A DNA stretch of 64,000 nucleotides from a virus (IMGVR_UViG_3300005259_000074:128001-192000); one strand, 5' to 3'. Positions 29,167 to 55,967 are shown, numbered from the stretch's first letter. The notes: generated from the sequence alone by a model not told the origin. A program made the numbers and translations.

Positions 29167-29451
29167 TCAAACATTTTCTAGAGCATTTTCTATGATGAAC
29201 TCAGAGACCTCTTCATCTTTGCAGGTACAGCCCTTTGCGCAGCTGTCATTCCTGTTGGCGCATTTCTCCGGTAAGTGGCACTCCAGACTTCCGTCTTCTC
29301 TCTTGAGAGCTACGTTGTCGTACCATATAGTGACTTTCATAGCATTATCTAGAGCCATACATTCTGCGTTGACGCGCATGACTCTGAAACTCTTCGTCTC
29401 GTGTGAAGTTAACATATTGATGTAGTCAATGAACATCACGTCGGGATTCAT
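29167..29451 (-). CDS. Small Cys-rich protein, C-terminal-motif group (ends ALENV)
   Basis: ORF overlaps its neighbour; shared C-terminus. Confidence 0.65.
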   Translation of the reverse strand: MNPDVMFIDYINMLTSHETKSFRVMRVNAECMALDNAMKVTIWYDNVALKREDGSLECHLPEKCANRNDSCAKGCTCKDEEVSEFIIENALENV

Positions 29452-29780
29452 AAATCCTCCAGAGCGAATATGAGGTCATCATGCATCGCCAATTCGATTG
29501 CTTCTGGGTGTTTGCACTCTCGAATGCGGTCTCCAGTAGCGAAGGGTTGCGACGCGTGCTTGCAGAACCTGTAAGAGTCTTCAGTCGTCTCTTCGTATCT
29601 GTCGCACGCGTGCTCATTCACGAAACGGAACTTAGGTATGCAAGTGTTGTCGCATATGACGACGTCGTCTGTCGCTCTGCACTTCCCAGCGATCTCGTAG
29701 AATCTTCCTTTTCCGTGCGAGTCGCCGTTGTTGGCAGCAAAGTATCCTCGAAGAGAGCCGCACAACACACCTTTGAACAT
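29448..29780 (-). CDS. Small Cys-rich protein, C-terminal-motif group (ends ALEDL)
   Basis: MFKG start shared with the 51458 and 51748 genes. Confidence 0.65.
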   Translation of the reverse strand: MFKGVLCGSLRGYFAANNGDSHGKGRFYEIAGKCRATDDVVICDNTCIPKFRFVNEHACDRYEETTEDSYRFCKHASQPFATGDRIRECKHPEAIELAMHDDLIFALEDL

Positions 29781-29809
29781 AGACGATCACCTCTGTCTAG
29801 AGTACTCGC

Positions 29810-30013
29810 TCATATGTCCTCGAGTTTGTCGACGATGTCTTCGTCCGCGAAACCTACTTCGCGCCACTCACCTCCTAAGAGTGGATCCCACACGAATAGT
29901 TCTTTGATGTCAGCGAACTCCAACCACCGATTTTCACCGTTGAGAGTGCGCTTTCGGAACAGGAATTTCCTCCTGATCCTCATTTCACCTTGTTTAGGCT
30001 CTTCCCATCTCAT
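29810..30013 (-). CDS. Small protein, C-terminal-motif group (ends KLEDI)
   Basis: Likely ATG at 30013 (ATGA overlap). Confidence 0.6.
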   Translation of the reverse strand: MRWEEPKQGEMRIRRKFLFRKRTLNGENRWLEFADIKELFVWDPLLGGEWREVGFADEDIVDKLEDI

Positions 30014-30186
30014 CGCTTCTCCGCACTGACGCTGTACATGGCGACTTGCAGCTCTATGTTCTTCAGCTCTACTTGCTTCTCCATGTAGTAGTGCACGAGG
30101 TTCCACGCGACTGCGGCGATGATGACCACTGCTATGATGGTCCCGCAGCCACTTCCTCTATTAACTACGACCGTGTTCTCCGCCAT
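30010..30186 (-). CDS. Small membrane protein (58 aa, not in the ORF track)
   Basis: MAENTVVVNRGSGCGTIIAVVIIAAVAWNL hydrophobic segment; GGAG SD upstream; ATGA overlap. Confidence 0.6.
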   Translation of the reverse strand: MAENTVVVNRGSGCGTIIAVVIIAAVAWNLVHYYMEKQVELKNIELQVAMYSVSAEKR

Positions 30187-30208
30187 TGTGATACGTCTCC
30201 TTTGGTGT

Positions 30209-30469
30209 TCATATGAAAATCTTATAAAGCATCTTTTTATAGATCAGCATGATCAGCAGACCTTTGCCGTCTATCTTGATGTTGAACTTAGAGTAAAAGA
30301 GATTGTGTTTCTCTTCCCATTCTATATCCAATTTTTTCTTAGACTTCTCATTCTCGAGGAATTTTCTCAATTTCCTCCTCGAAAAGAAATCGCTAGTCGC
30401 AGTTAAAGACGTGAAATACATCGTATCAGCATGTAATTCCCAGTCTCTCACTATCTCCTCGTTGGTCAT
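30209..30469 (-). CDS. Hypothetical protein
   Basis: 86-aa ORF with ATGA overlap. Confidence 0.5.
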   Translation of the reverse strand: MTNEEIVRDWELHADTMYFTSLTATSDFFSRRKLRKFLENEKSKKKLDIEWEEKHNLFYSKFNIKIDGKGLLIMLIYKKMLYKIFI

Positions 30470-30837
30470 TTCTTCTCTACTTCACCGGAGTTCTCCCTGA
30501 TGTCGAATGTCCTGCGGCAAAACGTCTTAGGATTCCAGATGTCTCGGCCGCCCATGTGATAATAGCCGAATATGTAGACTCTCCTTACTTTGAAATTAGG
30601 AGTAGACTCCGGGAGCACGGATACTACGGCGACATCTCCGTCATCGAAGGTCACGCTTTCGATTTTTCCTTCTACTGGGAAATCATTCTTCGGTTGGAGA
30701 CGATCTATGTCAGTGATGATCTGTTGTGTGTGTTCTATGTGCATTTTGTCAAAATGAGCGCACGAGTAGCTTATGGCAGCAACACATGCTGTCACTATTG
30801 CGACAATGATTCCAACTGTTATCAATACTTCTTTCAT
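30466..30837 (-). CDS. Hypothetical protein with N-terminal hydrophobic anchor
   Basis: LITVGIIVAIVTACVAAI segment. Confidence 0.55.
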   Translation of the reverse strand: MKEVLITVGIIVAIVTACVAAISYSCAHFDKMHIEHTQQIITDIDRLQPKNDFPVEGKIESVTFDDGDVAVVSVLPESTPNFKVRRVYIFGYYHMGGRDIWNPKTFCRRTFDIRENSGEVEKK

Positions 30838-30862
30838 ATCATTTTCCTTTTCAGATGTTGGG

Positions 30863-32497
30863 TTAGACTCCGACGCCGTCTATTTTCGCGTGGTTGTACA
30901 CTGGACTTATCTCGCTGTGGCTGCCAGCTGTGTAGACCACAGACACCTTTATCTTCGGCTTCCTCCATGGGGTATATCCGTCTGTCAAGAATATTGCCCT
31001 CACCTCTCTCAGCTTTTGTCCCTTGCTGTTCTTCTCGAGGTTGTTCTCGATGTAGTCGAGAGCTTTAGTCAGATCGGTACCTCCTCTTCCGTGCATCTTT
31101 ATGCCGACATCCTTCGGGAGGCGCTTGAACTTTCTGATGCTCTTCTCGTGGACTCCGTCGTCGCACTCAATGAGAGTCACTTGTGTTCCTGTGCTTCTCA
31201 TTCCCTTACGGACATATCCCATAAATTTGGTGAGTTCGTCGTCTCCGACGGAACCGGAGGTGTCTACTACTATGTACACCTTCCTCCCTTCGATGACATG
31301 CTTCTTGTAGTGAAAGCTGTCTTCGAACCGCCGCGACGGCCTTCCGAAGTAGTAGTTCACTTCAGCTTTGATGTCGTCTCCGAACGCATGGGTGATGAGC
31401 TTCTCCCAGATCTTAGAATGCACTTTCCCCTCGTAGTCTGGGAGGATTGAAGAGAGTCCATCTCCTTGTCCGATTCCCTTCTTACGCTCGTGATCTTCCT
31501 GACGCTTCTTCGCCTTCTTGAGGATCTCGCGGAACACAGAGTTGTCTTGCGCCGCATTGGAAATCTGCTTGTTGTGGCCGTAGAGATCGTTCATTATCTT
31601 TTCGAGACCACTACCGCACTTCCCGCACGCGGCCGGACAACTGACTTGTCCGTTTCCCTGCCCTTGCTGTTGGCCATTCTGTCCCTGACCTTGCCCTGGC
31701 TGCTGTCCACCCTGACCAGGCTGTCCCTGTTGGCTGGGTTGCTGGCCTTGCCCCGGTTGTTGGCCGGGCTGCTGGCCATTCTGTCCCTGCTGACTCGGCT
31801 GCGGTTGCTGTCCACCTGGTTTTTGCTGCTGCTGCTGCTGACCTTGCTGGTTGTGTTTGCACGAAGAACAGGGATTCTTTGCGGGGTGCTCGCGAAGGAT
31901 CTTGTAGTAGTATTCAGCCTGCATCTTCTCGTCAACTTTGACGTTGGGATATCCTCTGTCTTTGAGCATCTCTTTGAAGCTCTTGAAAGTTATCCAATCC
32001 CCTTCTTGGACATTGATGAGCTGGTTGATTGCGTTGTCGGCTCCGATGTTGAAGTCGCTGTGCTTCTGAGGGTCGACTTTGCCGTCTGCCTCTTGGAGGA
32101 TTGGCCGGAACCTTGAGAAGTGGTGGAGGCCCTCGTGCAAGACTTCGTGCTCGAGGACGAAGAGTTGCATCGGACGACTGAGTGTAGCCAGGAAGTAGTT
32201 GTTGATCTCAATCAACAGTTTTTGGCAGTTCACCGCAGCAGTTGGAACACTCGTGGATATCTTCCTATCGAGGCGGCTCAGTGTGTAGCCGTAAAACGGT
32301 TTGTTAAGGTAGAGTGATTTGATGAGTTCCGATATGTAGAATGAGTTTATCTCCGACGGTTGTTGGACGTATGGCCTCCCGTTGTAGTAGTCGGGGTTGT
32401 TCTGAGTCGCGAGGATGCGCTCGAGGATGGGCTTGGCGTTCCACCGGTCAGCTTCCGCTTGCGTTACGAGCTTGACAGTCTTTGGAAGTTCGTTCAT
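30863..32497 (-). CDS. Metallopeptidase-VWA-like protein (DUF2201-type) with Gln/Gly-rich linker
   Basis: HEVLHEGLHH (HExxH), VVDTSGSV MIDAS and GRGGTDL motifs. Confidence 0.85.
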   Translation of the reverse strand: MNELPKTVKLVTQAEADRWNAKPILERILATQNNPDYYNGRPYVQQPSEINSFYISELIKSLYLNKPFYGYTLSRLDRKISTSVPTAAVNCQKLLIEINNYFLATLSRPMQLFVLEHEVLHEGLHHFSRFRPILQEADGKVDPQKHSDFNIGADNAINQLINVQEGDWITFKSFKEMLKDRGYPNVKVDEKMQAEYYYKILREHPAKNPCSSCKHNQQGQQQQQQKPGGQQPQPSQQGQNGQQPGQQPGQGQQPSQQGQPGQGGQQPGQGQGQNGQQQGQGNGQVSCPAACGKCGSGLEKIMNDLYGHNKQISNAAQDNSVFREILKKAKKRQEDHERKKGIGQGDGLSSILPDYEGKVHSKIWEKLITHAFGDDIKAEVNYYFGRPSRRFEDSFHYKKHVIEGRKVYIVVDTSGSVGDDELTKFMGYVRKGMRSTGTQVTLIECDDGVHEKSIRKFKRLPKDVGIKMHGRGGTDLTKALDYIENNLEKNSKGQKLREVRAIFLTDGYTPWRKPKIKVSVVYTAGSHSEISPVYNHAKIDGVGV

Positions 32498-32589: not shown

Positions 32590-32743
32590 ACAGTTCTAAG
32601 AAAAAAGTCTCAAAAAAGTAGGGCTCAAGTTTGTGTGAAAATTCTTTCGAATTCCCTTTACATTTACATTTGATGGATTATACGCGTACGCGCGTTTGTA
32701 TATGGAATGGAATTAAATGAGTGCATTTTTTCTGAAATTTCCC

Positions 32744-32776
32744 TTTACATCTTTACTTATGGCGTTATATTAGACT
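32744..32776 (+). promoter_or_regulatory. Early sigma70-like promoter TTTACA-N16-TATATT
   Basis: 21-nt exact repeat CTTATGGCGTTATATTAGACT shared with 47799-47819. Confidence 0.7.
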
Positions 32777-33282: not shown

Positions 33283-33339
33283 ACTTAGATTAAGGAGAAC
33301 ACTACTCTGAAGAAACAATTAAAAAATCTGAAAGTTCCC

Positions 33340-33367
33340 TTTACATTCACTCGATGTGAATTACATT
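33340..33367 (+). promoter_or_regulatory. Early promoter TTTACA-N16-TACATT
   Basis: TTCCCTTTACAT motif upstream of the AAA gene. Confidence 0.55.
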
Positions 33368-33423: not shown

Positions 33424-34575
33424 ATGGCAAGGGTGAACATCTCGAAGTTCAAGGAAATCGTGGCCTTCATCGCGAGGGCAAAGAGAGAACACGGTATCAC
33501 GTGCCCCATCCTCGTGTGGGGGAAGCAAGCAACCGGCAAGACGTCTTCGGTCAGACAGACTGCGGTCGCAATCAACGACATCCTCAAAGCTGCGGGCGGA
33601 GAAGTGACGAGTGCCACGTCCGTGACGCTGAACCTGGCTAACCAGACCCCGGAGGAGCTGCTAGGCTTTCCTAGCAAAGACGAGAAGAGCCAGACTACGA
33701 TCTACTTCCGGCCTTCGTGGATGCTCGACGAACCCAACACCCAAGTCTTCTACTTCTTGGACGAGATCAACAGAGCGCCGAAGTACGTGCTGCAGAGCAT
33801 GTTCAACTTCATCAATGAGGGGCGTCTCCATGATCATTCCATAAAGCCAATCGACATCGTCATCGCGGCGGCGAACCCACCAACGGAAGAATTTGAAGTC
33901 ACCGACTTCGATGACGCAGCGTTCATATCCAGGTTCGCTCACTTCGAGTTGGAACCCGATCTCGAAGAAGTCTTGAAGTACTTTGCTGCCAACAAGGACA
34001 TAGATCCGATCGTTCAAGACGTGATGAAGGAAGCCCCCGCCATCGATTCCGACGTCCCAGCGATCAAGATCGTTCCCGACTTCAGGATGTATGAGAGGGC
34101 TGGTCTCCTCTTGAAGATCATGAAGGAAGCTGAACTGGAGTCTTTCGGAAGTCACCTCATGACAGCAATGCTCGGCCCTGATATCTCTACGCTGATCCTG
34201 CGGAAAGCAAAGGACAGGCTGAAGGACATCAAGGCCGAAGACCTCCTCACCGGCAAGGTGAAGTTGTCGAGCATCCCACTCGACCGCATAGACGTGATCA
34301 CTGTGCTCAACGCGAACATTGCGAGGTACTTCAAGTCGAAAGGGTGGGCATTCCCCGACAAGAATGGGAAGATCACCGCGGTAGCTCCGACGTCCGTCCT
34401 GAAGATCATCGCAAGCTATGTCGAATACATCCCCAGAGATTCGGCGATCGCGCTGATCAAGGACTTCAAGATCCAGGGAACTCCTACTAAGGTAGTGAGA
34501 GATTACGTTCTCACGGAACTTAGCAAGAATTTCCTCTATGAGCTCTTGGAGGTTCAAGGATCAGCAAAACGCTGA
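33424..34575 (+). CDS. MoxR/AAA_5-like AAA+ ATPase
   Basis: WGKQATGKT Walker A, FLDEINRA Walker B, AANP sensor, SRF Arg finger; divergent from the VWA gene. Confidence 0.85.
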   Translation: MARVNISKFKEIVAFIARAKREHGITCPILVWGKQATGKTSSVRQTAVAINDILKAAGGEVTSATSVTLNLANQTPEELLGFPSKDEKSQTTIYFRPSWMLDEPNTQVFYFLDEINRAPKYVLQSMFNFINEGRLHDHSIKPIDIVIAAANPPTEEFEVTDFDDAAFISRFAHFELEPDLEEVLKYFAANKDIDPIVQDVMKEAPAIDSDVPAIKIVPDFRMYERAGLLLKIMKEAELESFGSHLMTAMLGPDISTLILRKAKDRLKDIKAEDLLTGKVKLSSIPLDRIDVITVLNANIARYFKSKGWAFPDKNGKITAVAPTSVLKIIASYVEYIPRDSAIALIKDFKIQGTPTKVVRDYVLTELSKNFLYELLEVQGSAKR

Positions 34576-34620: not shown

Positions 34621-35316
34621 GTGATGGGAAAGTGTTGGAGTGCACTGTCATCAGCTGCCGAAGCCATGCAAAATGTAGGCAGTGGTTTGACCGTGATAGT
34701 TCCACGCAGAACTCCAGATGCATGGTGGAAAGATGACAGTTATGCCGATGCGGTGTTAGAGCTCTCTGATCTGAAATACGGATTCCCAGTGATCAGAGCT
34801 GAATTTCACCCAGTGATCTCAGATACTCAGTATTCCGTGATCATAGGAGTACCGTTCAGTATCGATGAAACTAATGTCATGGCGGTCATTAAAAATCTTT
34901 ATTTCGAGCAGACTTATCTATGTGATGATGTTGTCAACACTCGGATAGTGAGTGCGGCTGTCATTGCAGTATTGGAGCGCGTCAGAGATTCTGGATTGCT
35001 CGGAAAGTTGAAAGCAAAGATATCTGAAGAATGTGAGAAGATCATCAATGTAGCGAAAGTCAGCGTAGAAGACGTGAGGTTTTTTCCCGTGTTCGATGGG
35101 TTATCCTTCACCAATAGAAGAGGAAACCCCATCGGAATTGTGATGAAACATAAGAAGTATAACATATCTGCGACTTTCATGACTAACGGAAAGATTCTAG
35201 TCGAATCTTCGGATGGAAAGTTGTGTCCAGATTCTCACATGCTTCCTGCAGTCTGGCAGTTGATGCTAGACATAGCTGCCAGTAAAAGTGCGAGTTCTAC
35301 AATAGAGAACTTATGA
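34621..35316 (+). CDS. Hypothetical protein
   Basis: 231-aa ORF with AGGAG SD; ends TIENL. Confidence 0.65.
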   Translation: MMGKCWSALSSAAEAMQNVGSGLTVIVPRRTPDAWWKDDSYADAVLELSDLKYGFPVIRAEFHPVISDTQYSVIIGVPFSIDETNVMAVIKNLYFEQTYLCDDVVNTRIVSAAVIAVLERVRDSGLLGKLKAKISEECEKIINVAKVSVEDVRFFPVFDGLSFTNRRGNPIGIVMKHKKYNISATFMTNGKILVESSDGKLCPDSHMLPAVWQLMLDIAASKSASSTIENL

Positions 35317-35621
35317 AGACGAAGAATAGCGATCCTCTTAGTTCCTGCATTGTGTCAGTGATCATCGATAAGACGTACATGCAGAGGGGAGTGTTTGTCA
35401 TGATGCTGTGTGTCATTTCTCTCTTGTTCTGCAATTCAATTATTTTCTTAACAGGATATTTGATAGCAGATGTAGTGTGCTATCACGATTGGATCGCAAT
35501 CTTTCCTACAATATTCGCTGTCGCATCCACATACGTGTACTTTTTGATGCTGTTTCAGTTGTGTCGAGCTGTCGAGAAGGAGCTAGCGGATCGTGTTGAA
35601 GACGCAGTAGAGAAGCTCTAA
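35313..35621 (+). CDS. Membrane protein (two hydrophobic segments)
   Basis: Hydrophobic stretches; ends AVEKL. Confidence 0.6.
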   Translation: MKTKNSDPLSSCIVSVIIDKTYMQRGVFVMMLCVISLLFCNSIIFLTGYLIADVVCYHDWIAIFPTIFAVASTYVYFLMLFQLCRAVEKELADRVEDAVEKL

Positions 35622-35634
35622 AACATCCTCCGCG

Positions 35635-35967
35635 GTGTATTTTAAAGAAACGAAAGGACATAATCATATGCAAATGGACTCTGAAGAAGTTCGTAAGACT
35701 ATCTCGGAAGTGTGCGAAGAGCTGAAGAGCATATTGTTGGAGAAGAACAAGGCGTATGGGAACTCAGCGCTCGAACCAGTCAGAGTGTTCTCCCGTGCCA
35801 ACCCGCTCGAGCAGATCAACGTCAGGATCGATGACAAGCTATCTCGTATATCTCGTGGTAGTGAATTCCAAGGAGATGATACAGAGTTCGACCTCATTGG
35901 GTATCTGATTCTCAAGAGAGTCTACAAGAGGATGACTACAAATGAAAATAGAGACGGAAAAGGCTAA
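35635..35967 (+). CDS. Nucleotide-modification-associated domain protein (DUF1599/Nmad1-like)
   Basis: LLEKNKAYGNSA...RIDDKLSRI...DLIGYLIL. Confidence 0.7.
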   Translation: MYFKETKGHNHMQMDSEEVRKTISEVCEELKSILLEKNKAYGNSALEPVRVFSRANPLEQINVRIDDKLSRISRGSEFQGDDTEFDLIGYLILKRVYKRMTTNENRDGKG

Positions 35968-36265
35968 TTTGCGTTATCGTCTCAATTCTTTTTGTCTCGC
36001 TCTAAAGAAGATCTCTGAAGATACAGAAGACTTCGATGATATATTTTGTCTTCCACTGATGAACACAAATGGAAAGTCAAAGACTCTGAAAGAGAGCCGA
36101 GAATTGCAGAAGAAGTGCACTCTCTATCAATCTCATGAATCTGGGTGGTGCAAGTTCTGCATGTCTGTCAGGGACTTCGACGGTGAGGAAGTGTGGTCAG
36201 ACATCTGTAAGAATGATTTCGCCAAAGATAAAGCCGCTATCATCAAAGCACTCGATGACATCTGA
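35942..36265 (+). CDS. Small Cys-rich protein, C-terminal-motif group (ends ALDDI)
   Basis: Six Cys; shared C-terminus. Confidence 0.65.
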   Translation: MKIETEKANLRYRLNSFCLALKKISEDTEDFDDIFCLPLMNTNGKSKTLKESRELQKKCTLYQSHESGWCKFCMSVRDFDGEEVWSDICKNDFAKDKAAIIKALDDI

Positions 36266-36274
36266 GGAATTCGT

Positions 36275-36505
36275 ATGACCGCTAAAGAGAATTTCTGCTC
36301 AGTCAGTACAGTCGACGTGGCTTTTGTATGCGGATGGCCTCACCAAGGAGATAAGGTTCCTTCTAAATGCAAATTTTTTATCAGAGCGAGACCGTGGAAC
36401 CTCAATGTTTGTAAGTGGTTCCAAGGTAGGACGCGCCCTAATTCTTGTTGCTGCGAAGAAGCTCAAGATGAAGCGATCATCGTCATGAAGATAGGTGACA
36501 TATGA
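36275..36505 (+). CDS. Small Cys-rich protein, C-terminal-motif group (ends KIGDI)
   Basis: Seven Cys in 76 aa. Confidence 0.65.
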   Translation: MTAKENFCSVSTVDVAFVCGWPHQGDKVPSKCKFFIRARPWNLNVCKWFQGRTRPNSCCCEEAQDEAIIVMKIGDI

Positions 36506-36804
36506 AGAAGACGTTCTGGGGAACTATGGATGGCGCTAAGAAGTTCAATCTGGCAGTGTACAGAGACCTTGATAAGTACGGCAGGCCAAACTCCAACTTA
36601 GTTCAGAGGGTCACCGAGAGAATTCTTCCCCGGTGTTCAGATGAATGTGAACGTGGAGATTGTTGCAGTTATCTTGAAGTAGAAGAGTTGGATGATTGTT
36701 ATTTTGCTTTTGAAGACAACACGATATCTTATTATTGCTCTAAGATTGGAGCGTATAAGCGCGCGGTAGATGCTGATCTTCTCAGGAAAATCGAGAACAT
36801 ATGA
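36502..36804 (+). CDS. Small Cys-rich protein, C-terminal-motif group (ends KIENI)
   Basis: ATGA overlaps at both ends. Confidence 0.65.
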   Translation: MKKTFWGTMDGAKKFNLAVYRDLDKYGRPNSNLVQRVTERILPRCSDECERGDCCSYLEVEELDDCYFAFEDNTISYYCSKIGAYKRAVDADLLRKIENI

Positions 36805-37064
36805 ATGATCGTTTGTTTGCGGGAACACTGAATAAGAGTATAAAAAGATTTGGAGAGGTTCTTCCTGCTTGTACAAATGGTGGGAATATATGGTGCTCTT
36901 ACTTTAAGTACGAGAAGAATGAACTATACTGCATACATGTACAGTTCTTGTCTCATAGTGAACAATTTGAAGAACACGCGTCATGTGGATATTTCTGCAG
37001 GCATGTGAATGCCTTTTGCCTCGCACAAGAGGCTGACTCTATAAGGAAATTGGAAGAGATTTGA
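36801..37064 (+). CDS. Small Cys-rich protein, C-terminal-motif group (ends KLEEI)
   Basis: Start/stop overlaps at both ends. Confidence 0.65.
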   Translation: MNDRLFAGTLNKSIKRFGEVLPACTNGGNIWCSYFKYEKNELYCIHVQFLSHSEQFEEHASCGYFCRHVNAFCLAQEADSIRKLEEI

Positions 37065-38541: not shown

Positions 38542-39642
38542 ATGTCGAACTCTGACGCTGGGTCTGTGGAAGCAGATCAACCTCCCTTGCCTAAGAATGA
38601 AAACTGCTGGAGATGGCAGTTAGCTAACAGGATAACCACAGCAGCTCAGCTGTCTGATATCATAGAACTAACCGAAGACGAACGATCTGCAATAGACCAC
38701 ACTGGTCTTCCCTTCGCGATAACTCCTTATTACGCGAAGCTGATATCAAACCCTCATATAAGAAAGTGCGTAGTGCCGAGCACTCATGAGATGACACACA
38801 GCGTCGGAGAAGACGCGGACCCACTCGGAGAAGAGTCTCACTCGAACGGCACGTGCGTAGTCCACCGGTACCCTGATCGCTGTCTGTTCATGGTGACTAA
38901 ATTCTGCTCGACGTTCTGCCGGTACTGCACTCGTTCTAGACTGGTTAGTGAAGGTGAGTGCATCTCAGATACTGACATAGAGGCAGGCATAGCTTATATC
39001 AGAGACCACGCGAAGATCAGAGATGTGATAGTGTCGGGTGGAGACCCTCTGACACTGTCTACAGATAAGTTAGACCGCATACTGACTGCGATAAGAAGCA
39101 TTTCACACGTGGAAGTCATCAGAATAGGTACTAAGGTTCCTGTGGTCCTTCCTCAGCGGATCGATCAAGAATTATGCCACATGTTAATGAAACACCACCC
39201 ACTGTTCGTTAATATACACTTCACTCACCTTGCGGAGCTGACACCTGAATGTGTTTCAGCGTGTTCTAAGCTTGCCAATTCTGGGATACCATTGGGATCT
39301 CAAACAGTGCTACTGAAAGGCGTCAACGATGATGCAACAACTATGAGACAGCTGTTTCAGGGACTGTTGAAGGCTCGGGTGATACCGCGATACTTGTACC
39401 AGTGCGACCCGGTGTTCGGTTCGTCTCACTTCCGGACTGACACGTCAGTGGGGTTAGACATCATCAGGTCTCTCAGAGGGTGGACTAGTGGGATGGCATG
39501 TCCCAGGTACGTCATTGACGCGCCTGGTGGTGGAGGAAAGATATGTCTAGAGCCGAACAGCGTGGTTGAAGACAATAGTGAAAAAATCACCATGAAGAAC
39601 TTCAGAGGAGAACTATACTCCTATCCGAAATTAGCGTCGTGA
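38542..39642 (+). CDS. kamA: Lysine 2,3-aminomutase-family radical SAM enzyme
   Basis: HRYPDR, CSTFCRYC (CxxxCxxC), VIVSGGDPL, IRIGT, SQTVLLKGVND and PGGGGK motifs. Confidence 0.9.
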   Translation: MSNSDAGSVEADQPPLPKNENCWRWQLANRITTAAQLSDIIELTEDERSAIDHTGLPFAITPYYAKLISNPHIRKCVVPSTHEMTHSVGEDADPLGEESHSNGTCVVHRYPDRCLFMVTKFCSTFCRYCTRSRLVSEGECISDTDIEAGIAYIRDHAKIRDVIVSGGDPLTLSTDKLDRILTAIRSISHVEVIRIGTKVPVVLPQRIDQELCHMLMKHHPLFVNIHFTHLAELTPECVSACSKLANSGIPLGSQTVLLKGVNDDATTMRQLFQGLLKARVIPRYLYQCDPVFGSSHFRTDTSVGLDIIRSLRGWTSGMACPRYVIDAPGGGGKICLEPNSVVEDNSEKITMKNFRGELYSYPKLAS

Positions 39643-40050
39643 TCACATATTTTCTATAATTTTCTCTGATACTGACTTAAGTCTCTCCTCAGCCACATTC
39701 GTAGACATGAGAGGTTCTTCTGTTCTCCACGAGGTGCGAGTGCTCATCCAACCTTTCCACGATTCTTCTGAATCAAAATAAGTCGCACTCTTGATCATCT
39801 CCGCGACGACGTCTTCGTAGCTAGCTTCTTCAGCTTCCCAACTATCACAACCAGAGCAAGAACCATATGAATACTCGTAGCTGAACACTCTTCCATCAGA
39901 GAGGAGCGCTGAGATGTCGACATTTCCTTGATAGTCAGATACATAATTTAAAAAGAGGAGCCTAACGGCGTGAACTTGTCTGAGTGCTTCACCGAGCTGG
40001 TGACAGTACCTGCAGTCTTCGACTATTTCTTCTATGTGGTCGTAGAACAC
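39643..40050 (-). CDS. Hypothetical protein (ends IIENM)
   Basis: YSYGSCSGCDSWE motif. Confidence 0.65.
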   Translation of the reverse strand: MFYDHIEEIVEDCRYCHQLGEALRQVHAVRLLFLNYVSDYQGNVDISALLSDGRVFSYEYSYGSCSGCDSWEAEEASYEDVVAEMIKSATYFDSEESWKGWMSTRTSWRTEEPLMSTNVAEERLKSVSEKIIENM

Positions 40051-45480: not shown

Positions 45481-45562
45481 TAACAGAGGTGGAGAGTTGA
45501 ACCCACAATGCGTTTCCGCCTGGGTTATGAGCCCAGTTAGCCTACCGAGGCTCGTCTCTGTA
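45481..45562 (-). tRNA. Initiator-like tRNA-Met(CAT) with long variable arm
   Basis: CTGGG-CT-CAT-AA-CCCAG (three G-C pairs), U1:U72 mismatch, V-arm GCG-GAAA-CGC; no CCA. Confidence 0.7.
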
Positions 45563-49219: not shown

Positions 49220-49430
49220 CCGATGAGCAATCACCCAAGACGACGAGAACGGTGTCGCGTCATTATGCGACAACTGGCCTATATTGGGAGAAAGATCAGA
49301 TAAAAAGTGCTACTATTTTGAAGAGTCCGGTGATTTAATTCACTGTGAATACGAAGGGAAAGGATGCTCTTGCCTCCATGAGAAAGCGCTGAAAGAAGCG
49401 CTTGCGATGCACAGAATGAACGTGATATGA
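49212..49430 (+). pseudogene. Cys-rich C-terminal-motif-group ORF interrupted by in-frame TGA at codon 5
   Basis: MNNR*AITQDDENGVASLCDNW...CSCLHEKALKEALAMHRMNVI. Confidence 0.5.
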
Positions 49431-49448: not shown

Positions 49449-49649
49449 ATGATCATCACGACTGAAGAAGAGTACGAAGCTGCATTGAAGAGAGTCGAGA
49501 GCCTGTGGGTTGCCGAAGATGGCTCCTCTGAGGCCGACGAACTACACTCTCTCGTCCTCGCGATAGAGGAGTGGGATGACGAACACTATCCCATAGATCC
49601 ACCTACAGCCGAAGCGGCGATTGAGTTCAGGAGAGAACAAGAGAAGTGA
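49449..49649 (+). CDS. HigA-like antitoxin N-terminal domain only (no HTH)
   Basis: ITTEEEYEAALKRVESLW...EADEL..LVLAIEEWDDEHYPIDPP..EAAIEFRREQ. Confidence 0.8.
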   Translation: MIITTEEEYEAALKRVESLWVAEDGSSEADELHSLVLAIEEWDDEHYPIDPPTAEAAIEFRREQEK

Positions 49650-49945
49650 ACTTGGAAGTGGTTTCTTCTCCAGTTGAATATTCGAAGCCGTCGTGGAATG
49701 ACACGGTTATCCGGGATTCTAACGGTATGTACTGGATCATCGATAGTACAGCCCCGGGGAATTCTTTTTGTAAGCAGCGCCAATGTAAGGATGATGGGAC
49801 GGAATTTGATAAGTCGACTATCGCTCGGACGGGGTTTGCGCGCCCGACGCACGAACTTTTAGCTGATCTGGGAAGAGGAAGAATTATGATTTGTGAGAAG
49901 TTGACGGCGGAACTCAGATTGCTGAAGAAGATAGATGGAGTCTGA
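49646..49945 (+). CDS. Small protein, C-terminal-motif group (ends KIDGV)
   Basis: GTGA overlap; shared C-terminus. Confidence 0.6.
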   Translation: MNLEVVSSPVEYSKPSWNDTVIRDSNGMYWIIDSTAPGNSFCKQRQCKDDGTEFDKSTIARTGFARPTHELLADLGRGRIMICEKLTAELRLLKKIDGV

Positions 49946-49948: not shown

Positions 49949-50380
49949 ATGCGTATGAAATTGAGATTCTTACGCGAGTGGCAGAGCATCAATGACGCAA
50001 AAAGAAGTCTCTTAAATCAGTTACGACATAACTGGGAACCCTCTAAATGGCCAGAAGGAGTCGAGGAAGCCGTCCTCGAGAAGCTCAAGAAGTTTCCAAA
50101 CTGCGACGGTTGGATCACCATGTATTTCCTCTCGACGGCGTTCTTCGTTGTATGCGCTCTGATATTCTCAGTGCCTTTTCTCATTGGCGTCCCAGTGCGG
50201 TCAGGAGCGGATCGCATGACAGTTGTCTTCTTCATTGTAACGTTGACGACTATATCAATCTTCATCGTCAGCTCTATATTCATGATCGTGAAGAACACCC
50301 GGGCTGGCCAACAGATGTTGAATCAAGCACGCGAAAATCTACAAGACGGATTGTTAGATCATAAATTAGAGGAACTATGA
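49949..50380 (+). CDS. Membrane protein, C-terminal-motif group (ends KLEEL)
   Basis: Two hydrophobic segments. Confidence 0.65.
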   Translation: MRMKLRFLREWQSINDAKRSLLNQLRHNWEPSKWPEGVEEAVLEKLKKFPNCDGWITMYFLSTAFFVVCALIFSVPFLIGVPVRSGADRMTVVFFIVTLTTISIFIVSSIFMIVKNTRAGQQMLNQARENLQDGLLDHKLEEL

Positions 50381-50670
50381 ACAACAAAGTCTTCAGAGGC
50401 GTTAAGACCGAGATGCTAGAAAAGAAATTTCATGCCGAACTGAAGAAGATGAATATAGAAGAAGAATGCATATGTGAGATAGTATTCACAGATATGAAAG
50501 ACCCTCGCTACATATTCATGACAGAATGTTGTGGTTATAGAAACAACAATTTCAGTGGACAGTGTATGTATGTCATCGATGATAGGCTTTCGATGAGGAT
50601 ATGCAATCATCCCAAGCGTGAAAAATTCATGCAAGAGACTTGTCTCTTAGTTGCGATGGAGAGGATATGA
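50377..50670 (+). CDS. Small Cys-rich protein, C-terminal-motif group (ends AMERI)
   Basis: Seven Cys. Confidence 0.65.
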   Translation: MNNKVFRGVKTEMLEKKFHAELKKMNIEEECICEIVFTDMKDPRYIFMTECCGYRNNNFSGQCMYVIDDRLSMRICNHPKREKFMQETCLLVAMERI

Positions 50671-50960
50671 ATCATTTTAAATATCCCTGCGGTGTAACAT
50701 TCATAGAAAAAGCGGCGATGAATTCGCGGTGTTCTTTTTCATGTCCTCATGTTGCGTGTGAGAAATATCCTCGTCATAATGAATGTAATTCAAAGGCGTG
50801 GTTAAATTGGATCATGACATCAAGGTTAGAAGAAGAACTTCCAGGAGCCGACTATTTCATCGGCGTAGATAAGTGCGGACATCCGTTAAACGAGAAAGTG
50901 AAAAGACATTCTCTACTTCTGTATGAGAATCTGGTGAAGAATACTGCGAGACAGAAATGA
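50667..50960 (+). CDS. Small Cys-rich hypothetical protein
   Basis: ATG at 50667 (ATGA overlap); lacks the C-terminal motif. Confidence 0.55.
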   Translation: MNHFKYPCGVTFIEKAAMNSRCSFSCPHVACEKYPRHNECNSKAWLNWIMTSRLEEELPGADYFIGVDKCGHPLNEKVKRHSLLLYENLVKNTARQK

Positions 50961-51205
50961 AGAATGCTGTAAGACATTATGAGACACACTCAGTATCATG
51001 CAAGTCTAGTGTTGACTGTTTCGTGTGCAATTATAATGTCATTGGAGAGTGTCTCTATAGAAAAGAAGATAGTAAACACAGATGTCAGTATGTTGGAAAG
51101 TGGTTCTTCAACAGAGGAGAGTGTTACAACAAGAGTGCAATAAATGAGGCTTTTAAAGAGAAAGCCACTGAGGTAAAAGTGTTGAGACAGATGGAGAAAA
51201 TCTGA
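50957..51205 (+). CDS. Small Cys-rich protein, C-terminal-motif group (ends QMEKI)
   Basis: Six Cys. Confidence 0.65.
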   Translation: MKNAVRHYETHSVSCKSSVDCFVCNYNVIGECLYRKEDSKHRCQYVGKWFFNRGECYNKSAINEAFKEKATEVKVLRQMEKI

Positions 51206-51206: not shown

Positions 51207-51458
51207 ATGTTTAGAGGTGTGATAAGTGAAGACATCAACGGCGGGAGGGAAGTCCTCTGCGACGGAGAAGCTTTCACCGAAGATGATCCTCGCTACTTCA
51301 TGTCTCAAGAACAGTGCGGCTACTTTGAGGAGAACCGTGAAGGTGATTGTTTCCACAGGTACAGGAAGGACCCAGGTGATTGGTGGACGTGCATCCACCC
51401 TCTCCACCGCTCGCTCGCTGAGGATACTCTGATCGAGATACGACTGGAGGGGATATAG
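51207..51458 (+). CDS. Small Cys-rich protein, C-terminal-motif group (ends RLEGI)
   Basis: Clear paralogue of the next gene (V.CD..AF..DDPR). Confidence 0.7.
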   Translation: MFRGVISEDINGGREVLCDGEAFTEDDPRYFMSQEQCGYFEENREGDCFHRYRKDPGDWWTCIHPLHRSLAEDTLIEIRLEGI

Positions 51459-51748
51459 TGTTTAAAGGCGTCATAGATCTGAGCATCAATAGTGAGAGGA
51501 AAGTATTCTGTGATAGCAATGCATTCTCTGGAGATGACCCTCGTTCTAAGTATCCCGAATCTTCGACTCTGTGCAGCCACTATAACGCGGGACCCGGGTT
51601 TGGCATTTCTTCTAAAGGATCTTGGACATGCATTCATCGAATCCAACGCTGCGATAAAGGGTGGGGCATGTGCGATCACCCGGATGCTAAAGATCTTGCA
51701 CTGACTACAGAAGAAGCTATACTAGAAGATAAACTGGAGAAGATATAG
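51458..51748 (+). CDS. Small Cys-rich protein, C-terminal-motif group (ends KLEKI)
   Basis: Paralogue of the previous gene. Confidence 0.7.
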   Translation: MFKGVIDLSINSERKVFCDSNAFSGDDPRSKYPESSTLCSHYNAGPGFGISSKGSWTCIHRIQRCDKGWGMCDHPDAKDLALTTEEAILEDKLEKI

Positions 51749-52068
51749 TGTTCAAAGGGACTCTCGATCTCGACTACACTCACCTCAGCAGTAAAGAAAT
51801 AGATGAAATAACTTCGTTGGCGTCGCCAGTCTTGTGCGACAGGTATTTGTTTGTTGGGGTTGACCTTAGGTCACAACTGATGGACCATGAGTGCGAGTGT
51901 TATGAATCAATGATGTCTCCTCAAGGATCAGTAAGTTGTCGTCATTTAAAGAAAATTGAATCTAAAATAACAGGCCCGTGGCGAACGTGCACTCGACACG
52001 ATGCACGACAGCTAGCTAAACATCAAGACGACGAGTGGAAAATCTTACTGAAATTGGAGAACATATGA
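51748..52068 (+). CDS. Small Cys-rich protein, C-terminal-motif group (ends KLENI)
   Basis: MFKG start; W.TC.RH..A..LA segment shared with neighbours. Confidence 0.7.
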   Translation: MFKGTLDLDYTHLSSKEIDEITSLASPVLCDRYLFVGVDLRSQLMDHECECYESMMSPQGSVSCRHLKKIESKITGPWRTCTRHDARQLAKHQDDEWKILLKLENI

Positions 52069-52343
52069 AACCTCCTTATGTTCCGATGTTAGAAGTTGAC
52101 ACTATCGTCGATGTCGGTTATTCACTCAGAAGATCGGGAGGATATTTCATGGTGACGAGTATAATAGGAAGTCACTATGAATTCAGGCGGTGCACTAAGT
52201 CCGGCAACAGATTTTTCAAGTATCTGATGGAACACGAATGTGAAGTAGTCGACCGCTTGATCGTCGACGGAGACAATCTATTGCACGTGATGGAAGAAGA
52301 GACGAACGAGTACAGACTCAACAAGAGGCTCCAATCGCTGTGA
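52065..52343 (+). CDS. Small protein, C-terminal-motif group (ends RLQSL)
   Basis: ATG at 52065. Confidence 0.6.
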   Translation: MKPPYVPMLEVDTIVDVGYSLRRSGGYFMVTSIIGSHYEFRRCTKSGNRFFKYLMEHECEVVDRLIVDGDNLLHVMEEETNEYRLNKRLQSL

Positions 52344-52630
52344 AGATAGAACACAACATGGTGGTGAAGTGCGTCAGAGGAGGGGGCGGCCAGAGCGAAT
52401 GGAAGAACTGGGGCACTGCACTGTATGTAGTGAAATTGACGAAAGAGAAAGGACACTGCTTTCTCGAGAAATGTGAGAGTAAGTTTAAGAAAAATTTCAA
52501 GATAAAAAGTTGTCGAAGTTATAATCTCAAGGTGAAAACTGTAGAGAAGTTCATAACCGAAGGTTCTTTCATTGTAGAAGAGAAGCTGTCAGCTGACTAC
52601 AAAATCTTCTTAGAACTGGAGAAGTTGTGA
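52340..52630 (+). CDS. Small protein, C-terminal-motif group (ends ELEKL)
   Basis: GTGA overlaps. Confidence 0.6.
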   Translation: MKIEHNMVVKCVRGGGGQSEWKNWGTALYVVKLTKEKGHCFLEKCESKFKKNFKIKSCRSYNLKVKTVEKFITEGSFIVEEKLSADYKIFLELEKL

Positions 52631-53073
52631 CTGTATTTGAACACAACAAAGAAGCAAAGAGGGTTAGAGATAGAGCTATCACACTCATGAAAGAATGTGA
52701 AGAAGCTTGGGAGGATAATCTCTTGTCAGCGCAAATAGCCATGTACATCTTAAACTATCTGTTAAAATACCTCAAACAAGAATCGGCTCTTGTCGCTGAA
52801 GTCAAAGACTGCATTATCATGAGCGCGATATTCACCGTGCAGATACTCAACTTATTGACGATCATCTATCCTAGTTCATATGATAGTGTTTCCTTTTACA
52901 TTTTTAACACGTTGCAAGTAGTATTGTTGATAATCTTGATGAAGTATTCTACAAAATACAGTCAAACACTGCTCGTGTTGAAGACTGTGACATCTGAGAA
53001 TGATGACAAACTGAACGAAATCACAAGCAGTATGAGAGACATAATAGCAGAAAATAAAATAGAGAGAATATGA
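52627..53073 (+). CDS. Membrane protein, C-terminal-motif group (ends KIERI)
   Basis: Hydrophobic segments. Confidence 0.6.
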   Translation: MTVFEHNKEAKRVRDRAITLMKECEEAWEDNLLSAQIAMYILNYLLKYLKQESALVAEVKDCIIMSAIFTVQILNLLTIIYPSSYDSVSFYIFNTLQVVLLIILMKYSTKYSQTLLVLKTVTSENDDKLNEITSSMRDIIAENKIERI

Positions 53074-53165: not shown

Positions 53166-54017
53166 ATGATGCCAAAGAAATTGAAGTACGATAGGAACAA
53201 ACAATCGGACATAGTTCAGTCTCAACACGCGTACAATCCTATCGACATATATGTCGAACAGATTGATAGACTCACTAGTTCTGAAGACTTGATCGAGAAG
53301 AATTTAAGATTCGCGCTGAAAGAAGCTCACAAATACAAGAACAACGGCATGGATCTCGAAGATCTTATTCAAGAAGCGAACAAGGGTCTCGTCGTCGCAG
53401 CCGAAAAGTACGATGCGTCGAAAGGTCCTTTCCTGCACTACGCGAAGTTCTACATCCGTAAGTTCATCTTAGCCACATTGACCACGACGAATGGTTCTGT
53501 GTCTGAAGCATCGGGCCACAAGTACGCGGTGCGGATGATAAAGCGGACTAGGCAGAACTTGGTAGAAGCGGGGAATCTAAATCCGTCGATCAGCGATATC
53601 GCAGCTGCCTGTGGAAAGTCAGAACGCCAAGTGAAGTTCGCACTATCGGGCCAAGTGCAGGGTATAGTTAGGCTTGACATGCCGGTCGATCATCACAGCG
53701 GTGACTGTAATAGAGACACCCACGAAGTCATATCTCTAGACAATCTCGATGCCAATGCCGACGGATATGGCTACAGCAGCTCTCCGGAGATGACCGCGAT
53801 GGCAGCCGACCGAAGGGCAATCCTTACTAAGATGTTCTCAGAGTTGCCGGACCAGGAACGAGACGCCGTCATCAAACGCCTCATCGAGGGAAAGACTCTT
53901 CAAGAGATAGCGGAAGAACACGGTATGACAACGACTGGAGTCAAGGGTATCGTGGAACGAGCGGTATGTATGCTCATGGATGCGGCTGAGAAGTACAAAC
54001 AAGAGATGATAGCGTAG
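53166..54017 (+). CDS. Sigma70-family RNA polymerase sigma factor (RpoD/RpoH-like)
   Basis: LIEKNLRF...DLEDLIQEANKGLVVAAEKYD region 2; region 4 HTH KTLQEIAEE. Confidence 0.9.
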   Translation: MMPKKLKYDRNKQSDIVQSQHAYNPIDIYVEQIDRLTSSEDLIEKNLRFALKEAHKYKNNGMDLEDLIQEANKGLVVAAEKYDASKGPFLHYAKFYIRKFILATLTTTNGSVSEASGHKYAVRMIKRTRQNLVEAGNLNPSISDIAAACGKSERQVKFALSGQVQGIVRLDMPVDHHSGDCNRDTHEVISLDNLDANADGYGYSSSPEMTAMAADRRAILTKMFSELPDQERDAVIKRLIEGKTLQEIAEEHGMTTTGVKGIVERAVCMLMDAAEKYKQEMIA

Positions 54018-54582: not shown

Positions 54583-54594
54583 TCGATTTAATTC

Positions 54595-54634
54595 GCCGCT
54601 CGCTGGAGAACAACCCTCGTCTCCAGCGAGCGGC
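54595..54634. repeat. 15-bp perfect inverted repeat
   Basis: GCCGCTCGCTGGAGA / TCTCCAGCGAGCGGC. Confidence 0.85.
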
Positions 54635-54643
54635 TGATCCCAT

Positions 54644-55462
54644 TTGGAATCTCACATGAGAATGATGCACTTGTCAGATTTGCACATCGGAGCTGCTCCT
54701 CGGCCTAACGCGCTGAACAGCTGTTCTCCTGTTGTTCCGAGAGTGAAGAAACACGTAGCCGAGGAGAAGCCCGATGTCGTAGTGATATCCGGAGACATCT
54801 TCGAGTATGATGTTCCCATGGAGTCTCGAATCTTCACACTCAAACACATGTTCGGTGACATTCCGACAGTATTCTGCTTGGGCAACCACGAGTTCTTCTA
54901 TAGGAACGTCCCAGATGCGCTAGACATGCAGTACGCGTATGATAAAGTCCCAGGATTGTACTGTCTAGACACCTGCGGACACGTTGATATCAGTGGAGTC
55001 AGATTCGTCGGTAACGTACTCTGGTACGATGGAAAGCACAAGCTTCCAGGTCAGGTGATGGAAGAATGGGCTGATGGATGCTGGGCTGACCGTCTGATCG
55101 AGGATCACGCTTCTTCTTGGTGGTTGTTCAATGCAGCATGCATAAAGCAGATAACAGACAACATTGGTAATTCTGACAAAAAGAAAGTGTTGGTGACTCA
55201 CTGTGTCCCACACAGTGATCTCAATGCTTTCAACAAGCAGAAGCCGTCGTCTGACTTCAACGCATACAGCAGCACTGACATCATCGGCAAAGATGATGCG
55301 CTGTACGACGTCTTCGACTACGCTTTGTGCGGTCACACTCACAACCCAGTCAGAATGCAGATAGGAAAGACGCAGTGCTATTGCTCACGTCAAGACTACT
55401 TTAGGTACACGGGAGTCGTAGAGTATGATATCATCGAACTTCTTGATGCAAGTCGAGAATGA
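54644..55462 (+). CDS. Calcineurin-like metallophosphoesterase
   Basis: SDLH, ISGDIF, GNHE, VTHCVP and CGHTH motifs. Confidence 0.9.
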   Translation: MESHMRMMHLSDLHIGAAPRPNALNSCSPVVPRVKKHVAEEKPDVVVISGDIFEYDVPMESRIFTLKHMFGDIPTVFCLGNHEFFYRNVPDALDMQYAYDKVPGLYCLDTCGHVDISGVRFVGNVLWYDGKHKLPGQVMEEWADGCWADRLIEDHASSWWLFNAACIKQITDNIGNSDKKKVLVTHCVPHSDLNAFNKQKPSSDFNAYSSTDIIGKDDALYDVFDYALCGHTHNPVRMQIGKTQCYCSRQDYFRYTGVVEYDIIELLDASRE

Positions 55463-55631
55463 ATCACTGAGCAACACACTGACTAAATTTTTAAACGGTG
55501 AACTGTCAGTGGAAGACTCCCGAGCAATCATCAGCACATCCGGCCTTTCTGAAGAAGCAAAGATGAATTACAACTTACTGCTAGATGTCGCTCTATCGAA
55601 GAAATGCGATAAGAAAATGGAAGAAATATGA
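55425..55631 (+). CDS. Small protein, C-terminal-motif group (ends KMEEI); start uncertain
   Basis: Overlaps the phosphoesterase end. Confidence 0.5.
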   Translation: MISSNFLMQVENESLSNTLTKFLNGELSVEDSRAIISTSGLSEEAKMNYNLLLDVALSKKCDKKMEEI

Positions 55632-55641
55632 AAGAGTTTCC

Positions 55642-55669
55642 TTTACATTCTTCATTTAGAGATTAATGT
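55642..55669 (+). promoter_or_regulatory. Early promoter TTTACA-N16-TAATGT
   Basis: TTTCCTTTACAT motif upstream of the 55692 gene. Confidence 0.55.
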
Positions 55670-55691
55670 ATCTTACAAGAGAGGGAACCTC

Positions 55692-55967
55692 ATGAGCGAG
55701 AGTAGAGTCAAACACAAAGGAAAGTACTACAAGATAGATGTTGATTGTGTGTTCGAGAAGACGCGAGAAGGCATGATAGGAAATTGGGAAGTGGCAAAAG
55801 AGATGTGTGAATTCTATCAGCCGCTGTTTAGTACGAGAATCGTGTGTAAGCACGCGTATTTCACTCGCTTGAGGAAGACGTGGAAACCTATCAAGTGTCA
55901 CGATCGCAGACGAAAAAAAGCGCAAATACGCGACTATGAGATAGCTGTTGCACTAGAAGAGGTGTGA
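55692..55967 (+). CDS. Small protein, C-terminal-motif group (ends ALEEV)
   Basis: GAGGG SD. Confidence 0.65.
   Translation: MSESRVKHKGKYYKIDVDCVFEKTREGMIGNWEVAKEMCEFYQPLFSTRIVCKHAYFTRLRKTWKPIKCHDRRRKKAQIRDYEIAVALEEV

Follow-up and report, generated by a model that had tools for sequence, protein, structure and literature searches.

Here we report that a 64,000-nucleotide stretch of virus DNA (IMGVR_UViG_3300005259_000074:128001-192000; the whole stretch analysed is hereafter the window) encodes many small proteins that share one C-terminal tail. The window corresponds to bases 128,001-192,000 of one virus record of 262,470 bp, from an uncultured T4-like jumbo phage with a GC content of 48.7%. 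The tail is a module of 11-12 residues, [DE]-A-x-[LI]-x-x-K-[LMI]-E-[ED]-[IL]-COOH, which ends exactly at the protein end. It recurs throughout the genome, is confined to C-termini, is portable between unrelated proteins, is independent of translational coupling and is retained in orthologues. We tentatively suggest that it may well act as a docking peptide for one common cytoplasmic partner.

First, the tail is present far more often than expected. Genes were called with our own heuristic of codon usage and ribosome-binding sites, which gave 457 genes covering 91% of the genome; all carrier counts rest on these calls and hold to about +/-10 genes. The strict tail pattern, [LIM][ED]x[LIVM]-COOH, ends 146 of the 457 proteins genome-wide, against 2.5 expected from its internal frequency of 0.55%. 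We also built a 12-residue profile, scored in bits, from the tails of the six-Cys family described below. At a threshold of at least 8 bits this profile recognised 134 called C-termini and 12 uncalled open reading frames (ORFs), all 12 of them evident members of the Cys-scaffold family, while internally only 13 of 74,155 sequence windows scored as high and none of the other ~3,400 non-gene ORF ends did. The scores are bimodal, with carriers mostly at 10-25 bits and ordinary C-termini of the genome at a mean of -30 bits (95th percentile -11.5). A preliminary description of the window had listed 24 such termini, at positions that mark gene starts on the + strand and stop ends on the - strand. 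All 24 are present, 21 as the peptide followed by a stop and three (TIENL, KLEEL and KIERI) via the gene table, and the motif stands above background in 23 of them: 19 score at least 5 bits, and four weaker tails (TIENL -1.0, AVEKL 0.2, IIENM 1.8 and RMNVI -1.8) still exceed the 95th percentile, but ELSNL, at -16 bits, does not. The motif is real, as that description held, but its scale is far larger than 24 genes and amounts to about a third of the proteome.

The conserved positions of the tail have a common pattern. In the family tails, position -3 is E/D in 93% and position -2 in 62%, and the hydrophobic positions -8, -4 and -1 share one face of an acidic amphipathic helix. Among 48 non-family carriers, which were picked on their last four residues only, K occupies -5 in 25, I/L/A occupies -8 in 38 and E/D occupies -11 in 36. 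An amphipathic helix had been proposed in the preliminary description, and both of our AlphaFold2 (AF2) models predict a C-terminal helix. Also in line with that description, the motif is missing from structural genes and from almost all enzyme genes; the exception is a DenV-like protein encoded outside the window.

Second, the carriers fall into one large family and many unrelated proteins. They had been called dissimilar, which holds for about 40 clearly different proteins but not for about 10 of the 24 in the window, which belong to one six-Cys family. A hidden Markov model (HMM) of the scaffold, built from proteins minus their last 14 residues and used with a family cut-off of E<1e-3, recognises 100 genes, 90 with the strict tail and 10 with near-variants; with missed ORFs, the family has ~110 members. 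These are proteins of 65-110 aa with the skeleton M-K-x-N-x-C … C … C-x-[FY]-[FY] … C … C-x-[CNS], which the tail follows directly, the last Cys standing at -15, -17 or -19 with no linker before the tail helix. Members in the window are found at 29448, 35942, 36275, 50377, 50957, 51207, 51458 and 51748, and three more, at 36502, 36801 and 55692, either match marginally or escaped the gene caller. When 154 carriers were trimmed of their tails and compared by BLAST, they formed one component of ~101 and 51 other groups, nearly all singletons, some of which are truncated family members. The carriers include both soluble and membrane proteins, as first described: transmembrane (TM) helices are found in 8 carriers (24 TM proteins are encoded in the genome), and Cys-free carriers occur too. 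The larger non-family carriers comprise ORFans of 321-402 aa and a 280-aa protein with a DenV-like N-terminal domain. This last protein (genome coordinates 215796-216638), the only carrier with a recognisable enzyme domain, consists of a DenV-like pyrimidine-dimer glycosylase domain (residues 1-82) and an extension of ~200 aa ending VLDSI. Searches of Pfam, PHROGs and the ESM Atlas gave no match for the six-Cys family or for the larger carriers (368, 371, 402, 321, 230, 187, 181 and 174 aa), and in the literature we found no paper describing the family or a C-terminal tag of this kind. A separate observation concerns four tandem paralogues of 110-150 aa (genome coordinates 89659-91188), which all start M-K-x-R-x-G-F-[VI]-S-N-S-S-S-S-S-F.

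The features of the window are listed below, with profile scores in bits and E values from the scaffold HMM.

29167-29451, - strand: tail carrier, 94 aa, 6 Cys, ALENV; profile 7.0; outside the scaffold HMM; 69-nt gap after it, uncoupled
29448-29780, - strand: six-Cys family member, 110 aa, ALEDL; E 2e-8; profile 12.5
29810-30013, - strand: unrelated carrier, 67 aa, no Cys, KLEDI; profile 17.2; singleton
30863-32497, - strand: DUF2201 metallopeptidase-like and VWA protein, no tail; candidate reader by position only
32741-32771, + strand: sigma-70-like promoter, TTCCCTTTACA-N14-15-TGnTATATT, the genome-wide consensus
33337-33367, + strand: sigma-70-like promoter of the same consensus, ahead of MoxR and of the carrier array 34624-37064
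33424-34575, + strand: MoxR-type AAA+ ATPase (AAA_5), no tail; candidate reader by position only
34624-35316, + strand: 230-aa ORFan directly 3' of the MoxR ATPase, weak TIENL; profile -1.0
35313-35621, + strand: 102-aa ORF, weak AVEKL; profile 0.2; passed over by the gene caller
35942-36265, + strand: six-Cys family member, 107 aa, ALDDI; E 2e-6; profile 14.6
36275-36505, + strand: six-Cys family member, 76 aa, KIGDI; E 6e-7; profile 11.2
36502-36804, + strand: marginal family member, 100 aa, KIENI; E 0.0017; profile 22.3
36801-37064, + strand: six-Cys ORF missed by the gene caller, 87 aa, KLEEI; profile 20.3
39643-40050, - strand: 135-aa carrier, weak IIENM; profile 1.8
41585-41890, - strand: 101-aa ORF, ELSNL, unsupported as a carrier; profile -16, background
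49284-49430, + strand: 48-aa ORF, weak RMNVI; profile -1.8
49646-49945, + strand: unrelated carrier, 99 aa, KIDGV; profile 11.8
49955-50380, + strand: membrane carrier with two TM helices, 141 aa, KLEEL; profile 6.9
50377-50670, + strand: six-Cys family member, 97 aa, AMERI; E 7e-6; profile 12.8
50957-51205, + strand: six-Cys family member, 82 aa, QMEKI; E 7e-8; profile 15.6
51207-51458, + strand: family member, 83 aa, RLEGI; profile 17.5; first AF2 model
51458-51748, + strand: family member, 96 aa, KLEKI; E 1.5e-7; profile 22.9
51748-52068, + strand: family member, 106 aa, KLENI; E 5e-10; profile 19.7
52149-52343, + strand: 64-aa carrier, variant RLQSL; profile 5.2
52340-52630, + strand: unrelated carrier, 96 aa, ELEKL; profile 5.5
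52627-53073, + strand: membrane carrier with two TM helices, 148 aa, KIERI; profile 14.6; K/R at both flanks
55425-55631, + strand: unrelated carrier, 68 aa, KMEEI; profile 9.4; 60-nt gap downstream
55692-55967, + strand: marginal family member, 91 aa, ALEEV; profile 14.2; preceded by a sigma-70-like promoter at ~55638

Two further observations belong to this region. The DUF2201/VWA protein ends …KIDGVGV, in which KIDGV looks like a tail (as in the carrier at 49646-49945) but has two residues after it, a resemblance that may be chance. A gene at 38542-39642 (+ strand), preceded by TATAAATA at 38495, encodes a KamA-family, lysine 2,3-aminomutase-like radical S-adenosylmethionine (SAM) enzyme (412 bits to AblA), which is unusual for a phage.

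Third, our data argue for selection on the protein rather than on the gene junction, as the preliminary description had proposed while naming coupling through a Shine-Dalgarno (SD) sequence and an ATGA overlap as a confounder. The tail is found in 69 of 124 ATGA overlaps, in 24 of 100 genes with a gap >40 nt and in 11 of 54 convergent or terminal genes. Uncoupled carriers (gap >15 nt, convergent or absent neighbour) number 44 where 1.1 are expected, and 55 of the 124 ATGA-coupled genes lack the tail, closing instead with residues such as K, R, T or Q; the motif is thus neither general among coupled genes nor gone from uncoupled ones. Coupling leaves a mark on codon choice without accounting for the motif. 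In coupled carriers, Ile(-1) is ATA in 38 of 38 cases, Glu(-3) prefers GAG over GAA (48:18), and the codon at -4 usually ends in G, making GGAG, a bias explained by the double use of the tail codons as SD and stop/start overlap in coupled arrays. In uncoupled carriers the codons relax to the genomic mix (ATA 12 / ATC 8, GAA 21 / GAG 16) and the residues stay. Moreover, conservation extends to positions -5, -8 and -11, which are encoded 15-33 nt before the stop and hence beyond any SD.

These results bear directly on the view that the tail is the translation of a junction cassette (a GGAG SD plus an ATGA/GTGA overlap) that has no peptide function and would spread by tandem duplication and cassette recombination. 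Such a view draws support from the 4- or 1-nt overlaps that couple 77 of the 146 carriers, from the bias of coupled codons to ..G-GAG-GAn-nTA-TGA, which sets the SD 4-5 nt before the next ATG, and from the existence of arrays of 10-27 coupled genes. It is already largely refuted by the uncoupled carriers with their relaxed codons, and it also fails to fit the coupled genes that end in K, R, T, Q and other residues, the conserved positions beyond any SD and the lack of non-gene frames ending in the motif. In addition, residue classes are held between relatives at a synonymous divergence (pS) of 0.6, in some cases with GTGA rather than ATGA. We consider a pure by-product very unlikely.

Fourth, the tail is retained as its carriers diverge. 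The 262-kb record is classed as a provirus in IMG/VR, with a CheckV completeness estimate of 97%, and encodes a T4-type major capsid protein, 37% identical to its counterparts in T4-like cyanophages and a Stenotrophomonas phage, and a gp21-type (T4-type) prohead protease at ~116.9 kb of the genome. No close relative was present in the phage collection, a nucleotide search with the third cluster against 50,697 phage records gave no match, and syntenic relatives sought in IMG/VR via MoxR were not found. A profile search of 1.84 billion representatives gave 159 family hits, and among the best 150 of these, 47 come from this genome and 103 are foreign; the strict tail is present in 92 of the 103. 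The foreign hits are all metagenomic proteins on few contigs, and three contigs of one Joint Genome Institute (JGI) metagenome are syntenic with this genome. The clade is represented in JGI 3300033121 and in the GROS21/BUCK21 samples of the European Nucleotide Archive. Between these and our phage, capsid and tail-tube proteins are 99-100% identical (major capsid protein 99%) whereas the miniproteins are 26-68% identical, with a mean of 45%. Pooled nonsynonymous divergence (pN) is 0.31 in the miniproteins versus 0.08 in non-carrier genes, and pS is 0.70 versus 0.48. The strict tail is kept in 45 of 50 reciprocal-best orthologue pairs, membrane and non-family carriers included, and the exceptions differ by one residue. 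Codon-level conservation in homologues, a check suggested in the preliminary description, points the same way: the tail codons have a pS of 0.60, which, with the strict tail kept, indicates that residues rather than nucleotides are held. More distant contigs in the European Nucleotide Archive (ENA) carry the same tails, often with GTGA overlaps, one of them on a 179-aa non-family protein. With a pN/pS of ~0.45 in the miniproteins and synonymous sites near saturation, we do not claim positive selection, and the higher pS of the miniproteins may mean that, besides fast evolution, recombination with a diverged pool has been at work.

Structural models bear on whether the helix needs a reader. An AF2 model of the family, computed with a 137-sequence alignment, is confident (predicted local distance difference test, pLDDT, 87.3; predicted template modelling score, pTM, 0.71) and contains two beta-hairpins, a short helix and a C-terminal helix at residues 60-74; a first model, of the 51207 protein, had a pLDDT of 72.7 and a C-terminal helix at residues 65-82. 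The family fold is confidently predicted and has no known match, as the best hits of the confident model reached E 6 in the PDB and E 3.8 in AFDB clusters with Foldseek and Z 2.1 in a VIA-wide search, and the first model gave no significant match in the PDB, BFVD or the Atlas. The helix could be structural, capping small, marginally stable proteins or bundling carriers tail to tail with no reader involved. The direct fusion of the family helix to the Cys scaffold, its confident prediction within the compact model (pLDDT 85-94) and the -8, -4, -1 pattern, which is compatible with helix packing, would all suit this explanation. Nevertheless, the same residues occur on unrelated bodies, including proteins with two TM helices and proteins of 280-400 aa, and packing does not require a motif to stop exactly at the C-terminus, as this one does in ~146 proteins, with hardly any internal or extended occurrences. 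Three hydrophobic residues are also few for a stable bundle. We regard a structural or self-association role as unlikely.

The genomic context suggests when and where the tail would act. Seventeen intergenic copies of TTCCCTTTACA-N14-15-TGnTATATT lie upstream of carrier arrays and of the MoxR gene. This promoter consensus resembles that of sigma-70, combining a TTTACA -35 element with an extended -10, and either host sigma-70 or the sigma-70-family protein that the phage itself encodes (53169-54017 of the window) may recognise it. The T4 late motif TATAAATA, by contrast, precedes structural-type genes only. From these sequences we infer that the carriers are probably expressed early. Carriers with two TM helices have K/R-rich N- and C-terminal flanks and acidic loops, which by the positive-inside rule places the tail in the cytoplasm. 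A cytoplasmic location speaks against export and against a reader in the periplasm and, taken with the promoters, also makes capsid loading less likely, so the export or packaging signal that the preliminary description had entertained is disfavoured.

Capsid loading deserves a closer comparison. In T-even phages, a short conserved peptide is the sole common part of a polymorphic set of accessory and anti-defence internal proteins (PMC3012670), and the tail could likewise direct a collection of small proteins into the head, to be injected from there, in the manner of the T4 capsid targeting sequence (CTS). The carriers are small and compact and belong to a T4-like phage with hypermodified DNA, and the CTS of IPI, IPII, IPIII and Alt is, like the tail, a short peptide common to unrelated small proteins in the same phage superfamily. 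However, the CTS is N-terminal, ~10 residues long, cleaved by gp21 and targeted to the prohead scaffolding core, whereas the tail is C-terminal, apparently uncleaved and carried by ~150 proteins behind early-type promoters. The tail offers no consistent L-x-E cleavage context, since L-x-E fits only if -2 is E (~36%) and cleavage there would remove a single residue. Further, 8 carriers are membrane proteins, the arrays have sigma-70-like promoters and lack TATAAATA, and ~150 cargo species would be far beyond known cases. We therefore hold capsid targeting to be extremely unlikely.

Other C-terminal signals were compared as well. The last three residues fit a PDZ class III ligand ([DE]-x-hydrophobic-COOH), and a search of the phage for PDZ_2 domains gave none; most bacterial PDZ proteases are periplasmic, and the tails here are cytoplasmic. 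We dropped a resemblance to KDEL-like endoplasmic reticulum retention signals because this is a bacterial virus, a membrane-targeting amphipathic helix because the tail is strongly acidic, and a type I secretion signal because the tail is cytoplasmic on membrane carriers.

The docking reading would account for these features as follows. The helix would be a short linear motif for docking, recognised through its free C-terminus by one partner, of phage or host origin, so that many different proteins could be handled as one class, either by recruitment to a hub or by delivery to a protease or chaperone. It would mark ~150 accessory proteins, namely ~100-110 six-Cys miniproteins and ~40 unrelated carriers (small soluble proteins, inner-membrane proteins with two TM helices and a few proteins of 280-400 aa), which are encoded in long coupled arrays behind sigma-70-like, presumably early promoters, with the tail probably facing the cytoplasm. 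The doubling of its codons as SD and overlap probably helped the module to spread. Of the addressing tag suggested in the preliminary description, the portability on unrelated proteins stands and the export or packaging function is disfavoured, which leaves hub docking or a degron as its more plausible meanings. Several points weigh against docking. We found no binding partner, and it is difficult to imagine how any but an abundant reader could serve ~150 clients at one site. Among family members, the helix sits at a fixed spacing after the last Cys, inside a confident compact model (pTM 0.71), and may there simply be part of the fold. Orthologue tails are 56% identical, little above the 45% of the bodies, such that the class of residue is conserved rather than the residue, and the expression timing rests on promoter-like sequences only.

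The closest functional precedents are tails that bind a hub, such as those of T4 gp43, gp33 and gp55 on the gp45 clamp, T7 gp2.5 and gp4, SSB-Ct, and the SspB XB tail on ClpX. Like the tail described here, these are free acidic C-terminal peptides with a hydrophobic tip that are common to several proteins, and they are read by one partner. They use other motifs and serve 3-15 clients of known function, in contrast to a third of the proteome and ORFan clients in this phage. For the docking peptide proposed here, gene position nominates three candidate readers: a radical SAM (rSAM)/SPASM protein, a ClpP-like protein and the MoxR/VWA proteins.

The ClpP-like candidate leads to a special case of docking, in which the tail is a degron that hands early proteins to an ATP-dependent protease for timed removal, either the phage ClpP-like protein with a host or phage unfoldase, or host FtsH or Lon. 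The ClpP-like protein (65 bits; PHROG 'ATP-dependent protease', 183 bits) and the prohead protease are different proteins, the gene of the former adjoins three large carriers, and a gene for a GroES-like co-chaperonin overlaps it (genome coordinates 225777-226704). A degron would also suit a motif that is exactly C-terminal with a hydrophobic last residue (I/L/V/M), the position of the carriers behind early-type promoters, and the case of Vibrio phage Va1, which has another proteome-wide tag and also encodes ClpP. Against it, ClpP-like genes are common, being present in ~1,900 phage records including T5-like and rV5-like phages, and a search of the phage for an unfoldase partner yielded nothing beyond MoxR and the clamp loader. 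Nor does the tail have an ssrA-type, L-A-A-like end: its positions -3 and -2 are mostly acidic, and in ssrA variants acidic residues at these positions are unfavourable for ClpX recognition. We rejected ClpP as a specific correlate of tags on the strength of those ~1,900 records, and we know of no tags reported for the T5-like and rV5-like phages with ClpP-like genes. A degron seems rather improbable to us.

The rSAM/SPASM candidate, a protein of 357 aa (genome coordinates 87385-88458, outside the window), is encoded by a gene whose start overlaps, as ATGA, the final gene of an array of nine carriers, a synteny that is kept in a relative. It raises the idea that the tail is a follower recognition sequence and the six-Cys miniproteins are substrates of the enzyme, as for ribosomally synthesized and post-translationally modified peptides (RiPPs). 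In SPASM maturase systems, a constant recognition part joined to hypervariable Cys-rich cores is the usual layout, and the carriers resemble multi-precursor RiPPs (prochlorosins, SCIFF) in their tandem paralogous Cys-rich genes, their constant segment and the rSAM/SPASM gene in the array. The enzyme has weak NCBIfam similarity to the peptide maturases WgkB, ScmE, MftC and StsB, but all matches are far below curated cut-offs. Unlike RiPP precursors, the carriers have their constant part at the C-terminus, are predicted to be folded domains of 65-110 aa, and include Cys-free and membrane proteins with the same tail. The enzyme and the family do not co-occur as a RiPP pair would, as the enzyme is far more widespread (3,224 homologues at 50-60% identity versus 159 miniprotein hits), and the neighbourhood of one distant homologue held neither the family nor the tail. 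A complex prediction for the enzyme with an adjacent miniprotein scored 0.01, but the miniprotein folded poorly without an alignment, so the score counts neither for nor against an interaction. We give a RiPP-like role very little credence. Homologues of this enzyme sit in other large metagenomic, probably phage, contigs. Another radical SAM gene, for an RlmN/Cfr-like RNA methyltransferase (92 bits; genome coordinates 44592-45482), lies in a different carrier array and is followed by a gene for a 72-aa CxxC…CxxC protein.

Beyond these systems, peptides that direct cargo into bacterial microcompartments (BMCs) or encapsulins offer a further likeness. Encapsulation peptides (PduP, PduD, EutC, CcmN) and encapsulin cargo peptides are terminal, ~10-18 residues long and often amphipathic helical. 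They bring unrelated cargo to one shell and have a similar arrangement of acidic and then hydrophobic residues at i, i+4 and i+7, and a terminal amphipathic helix on unrelated cargo is found here too (both AF2 models; 51 other sequence groups). Unlike them, the tail has no flexible linker before it in the family, and the phage genome gave no BMC-domain match. We know of no compartment in T4-like phages. The tail fails those defining features of the nearest known systems (CTS, BMC/encapsulin peptides and hub-binding tails) that could be tested.

A proteome-wide C-terminal tag is also seen in Vibrio phage Va1 (MK387337.2:1-50000), in which at least 20 ORFs, many of them unannotated in the record, end [HY]-P-E-x-F-I-COOH. 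Like our phage, Va1 encodes MoxR-like and ClpP-like proteins, whereas its tag motif is entirely different. In Va1, a 380-aa ORF directly after the MoxR-like gene is tagged, and here the ORF after MoxR has a weak KLEEL-type tail; with two cases, this parallel could be due to chance and is only a lead. Together with the Va1 tag, our findings suggest that proteome-wide C-terminal tags may recur in big phages and have gone undescribed in genome papers.

Finally, these findings are relevant to how large phages, which are rich in small early ORFans, organise their accessory proteins, as here a third of the proteome is marked as one class. The miniproteins diverge several times faster than core genes and look like an arms-race repertoire. 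If one reader exists, it would link ~150 orphan proteins to one pathway at once, and the tail would be a ready-made portable tag for engineering. A bolder and distinctly less probable extension of docking is that the tail provides proteome-wide addressing, in which more than 100 hypervariable six-Cys binders and dozens of early effectors would share one C-terminal handle and be plugged, with captured host proteins, into a single machine, be it a protease, an AAA+ remodeller or an assembly site, phage- or host-encoded. If true, such a system would parallel, in a bacterial virus, the ankyrin/PRANC or BTB-Kelch adaptor families of poxviruses, and lineage-specific tags may be a general but so far undescribed way in which large phages are organised.

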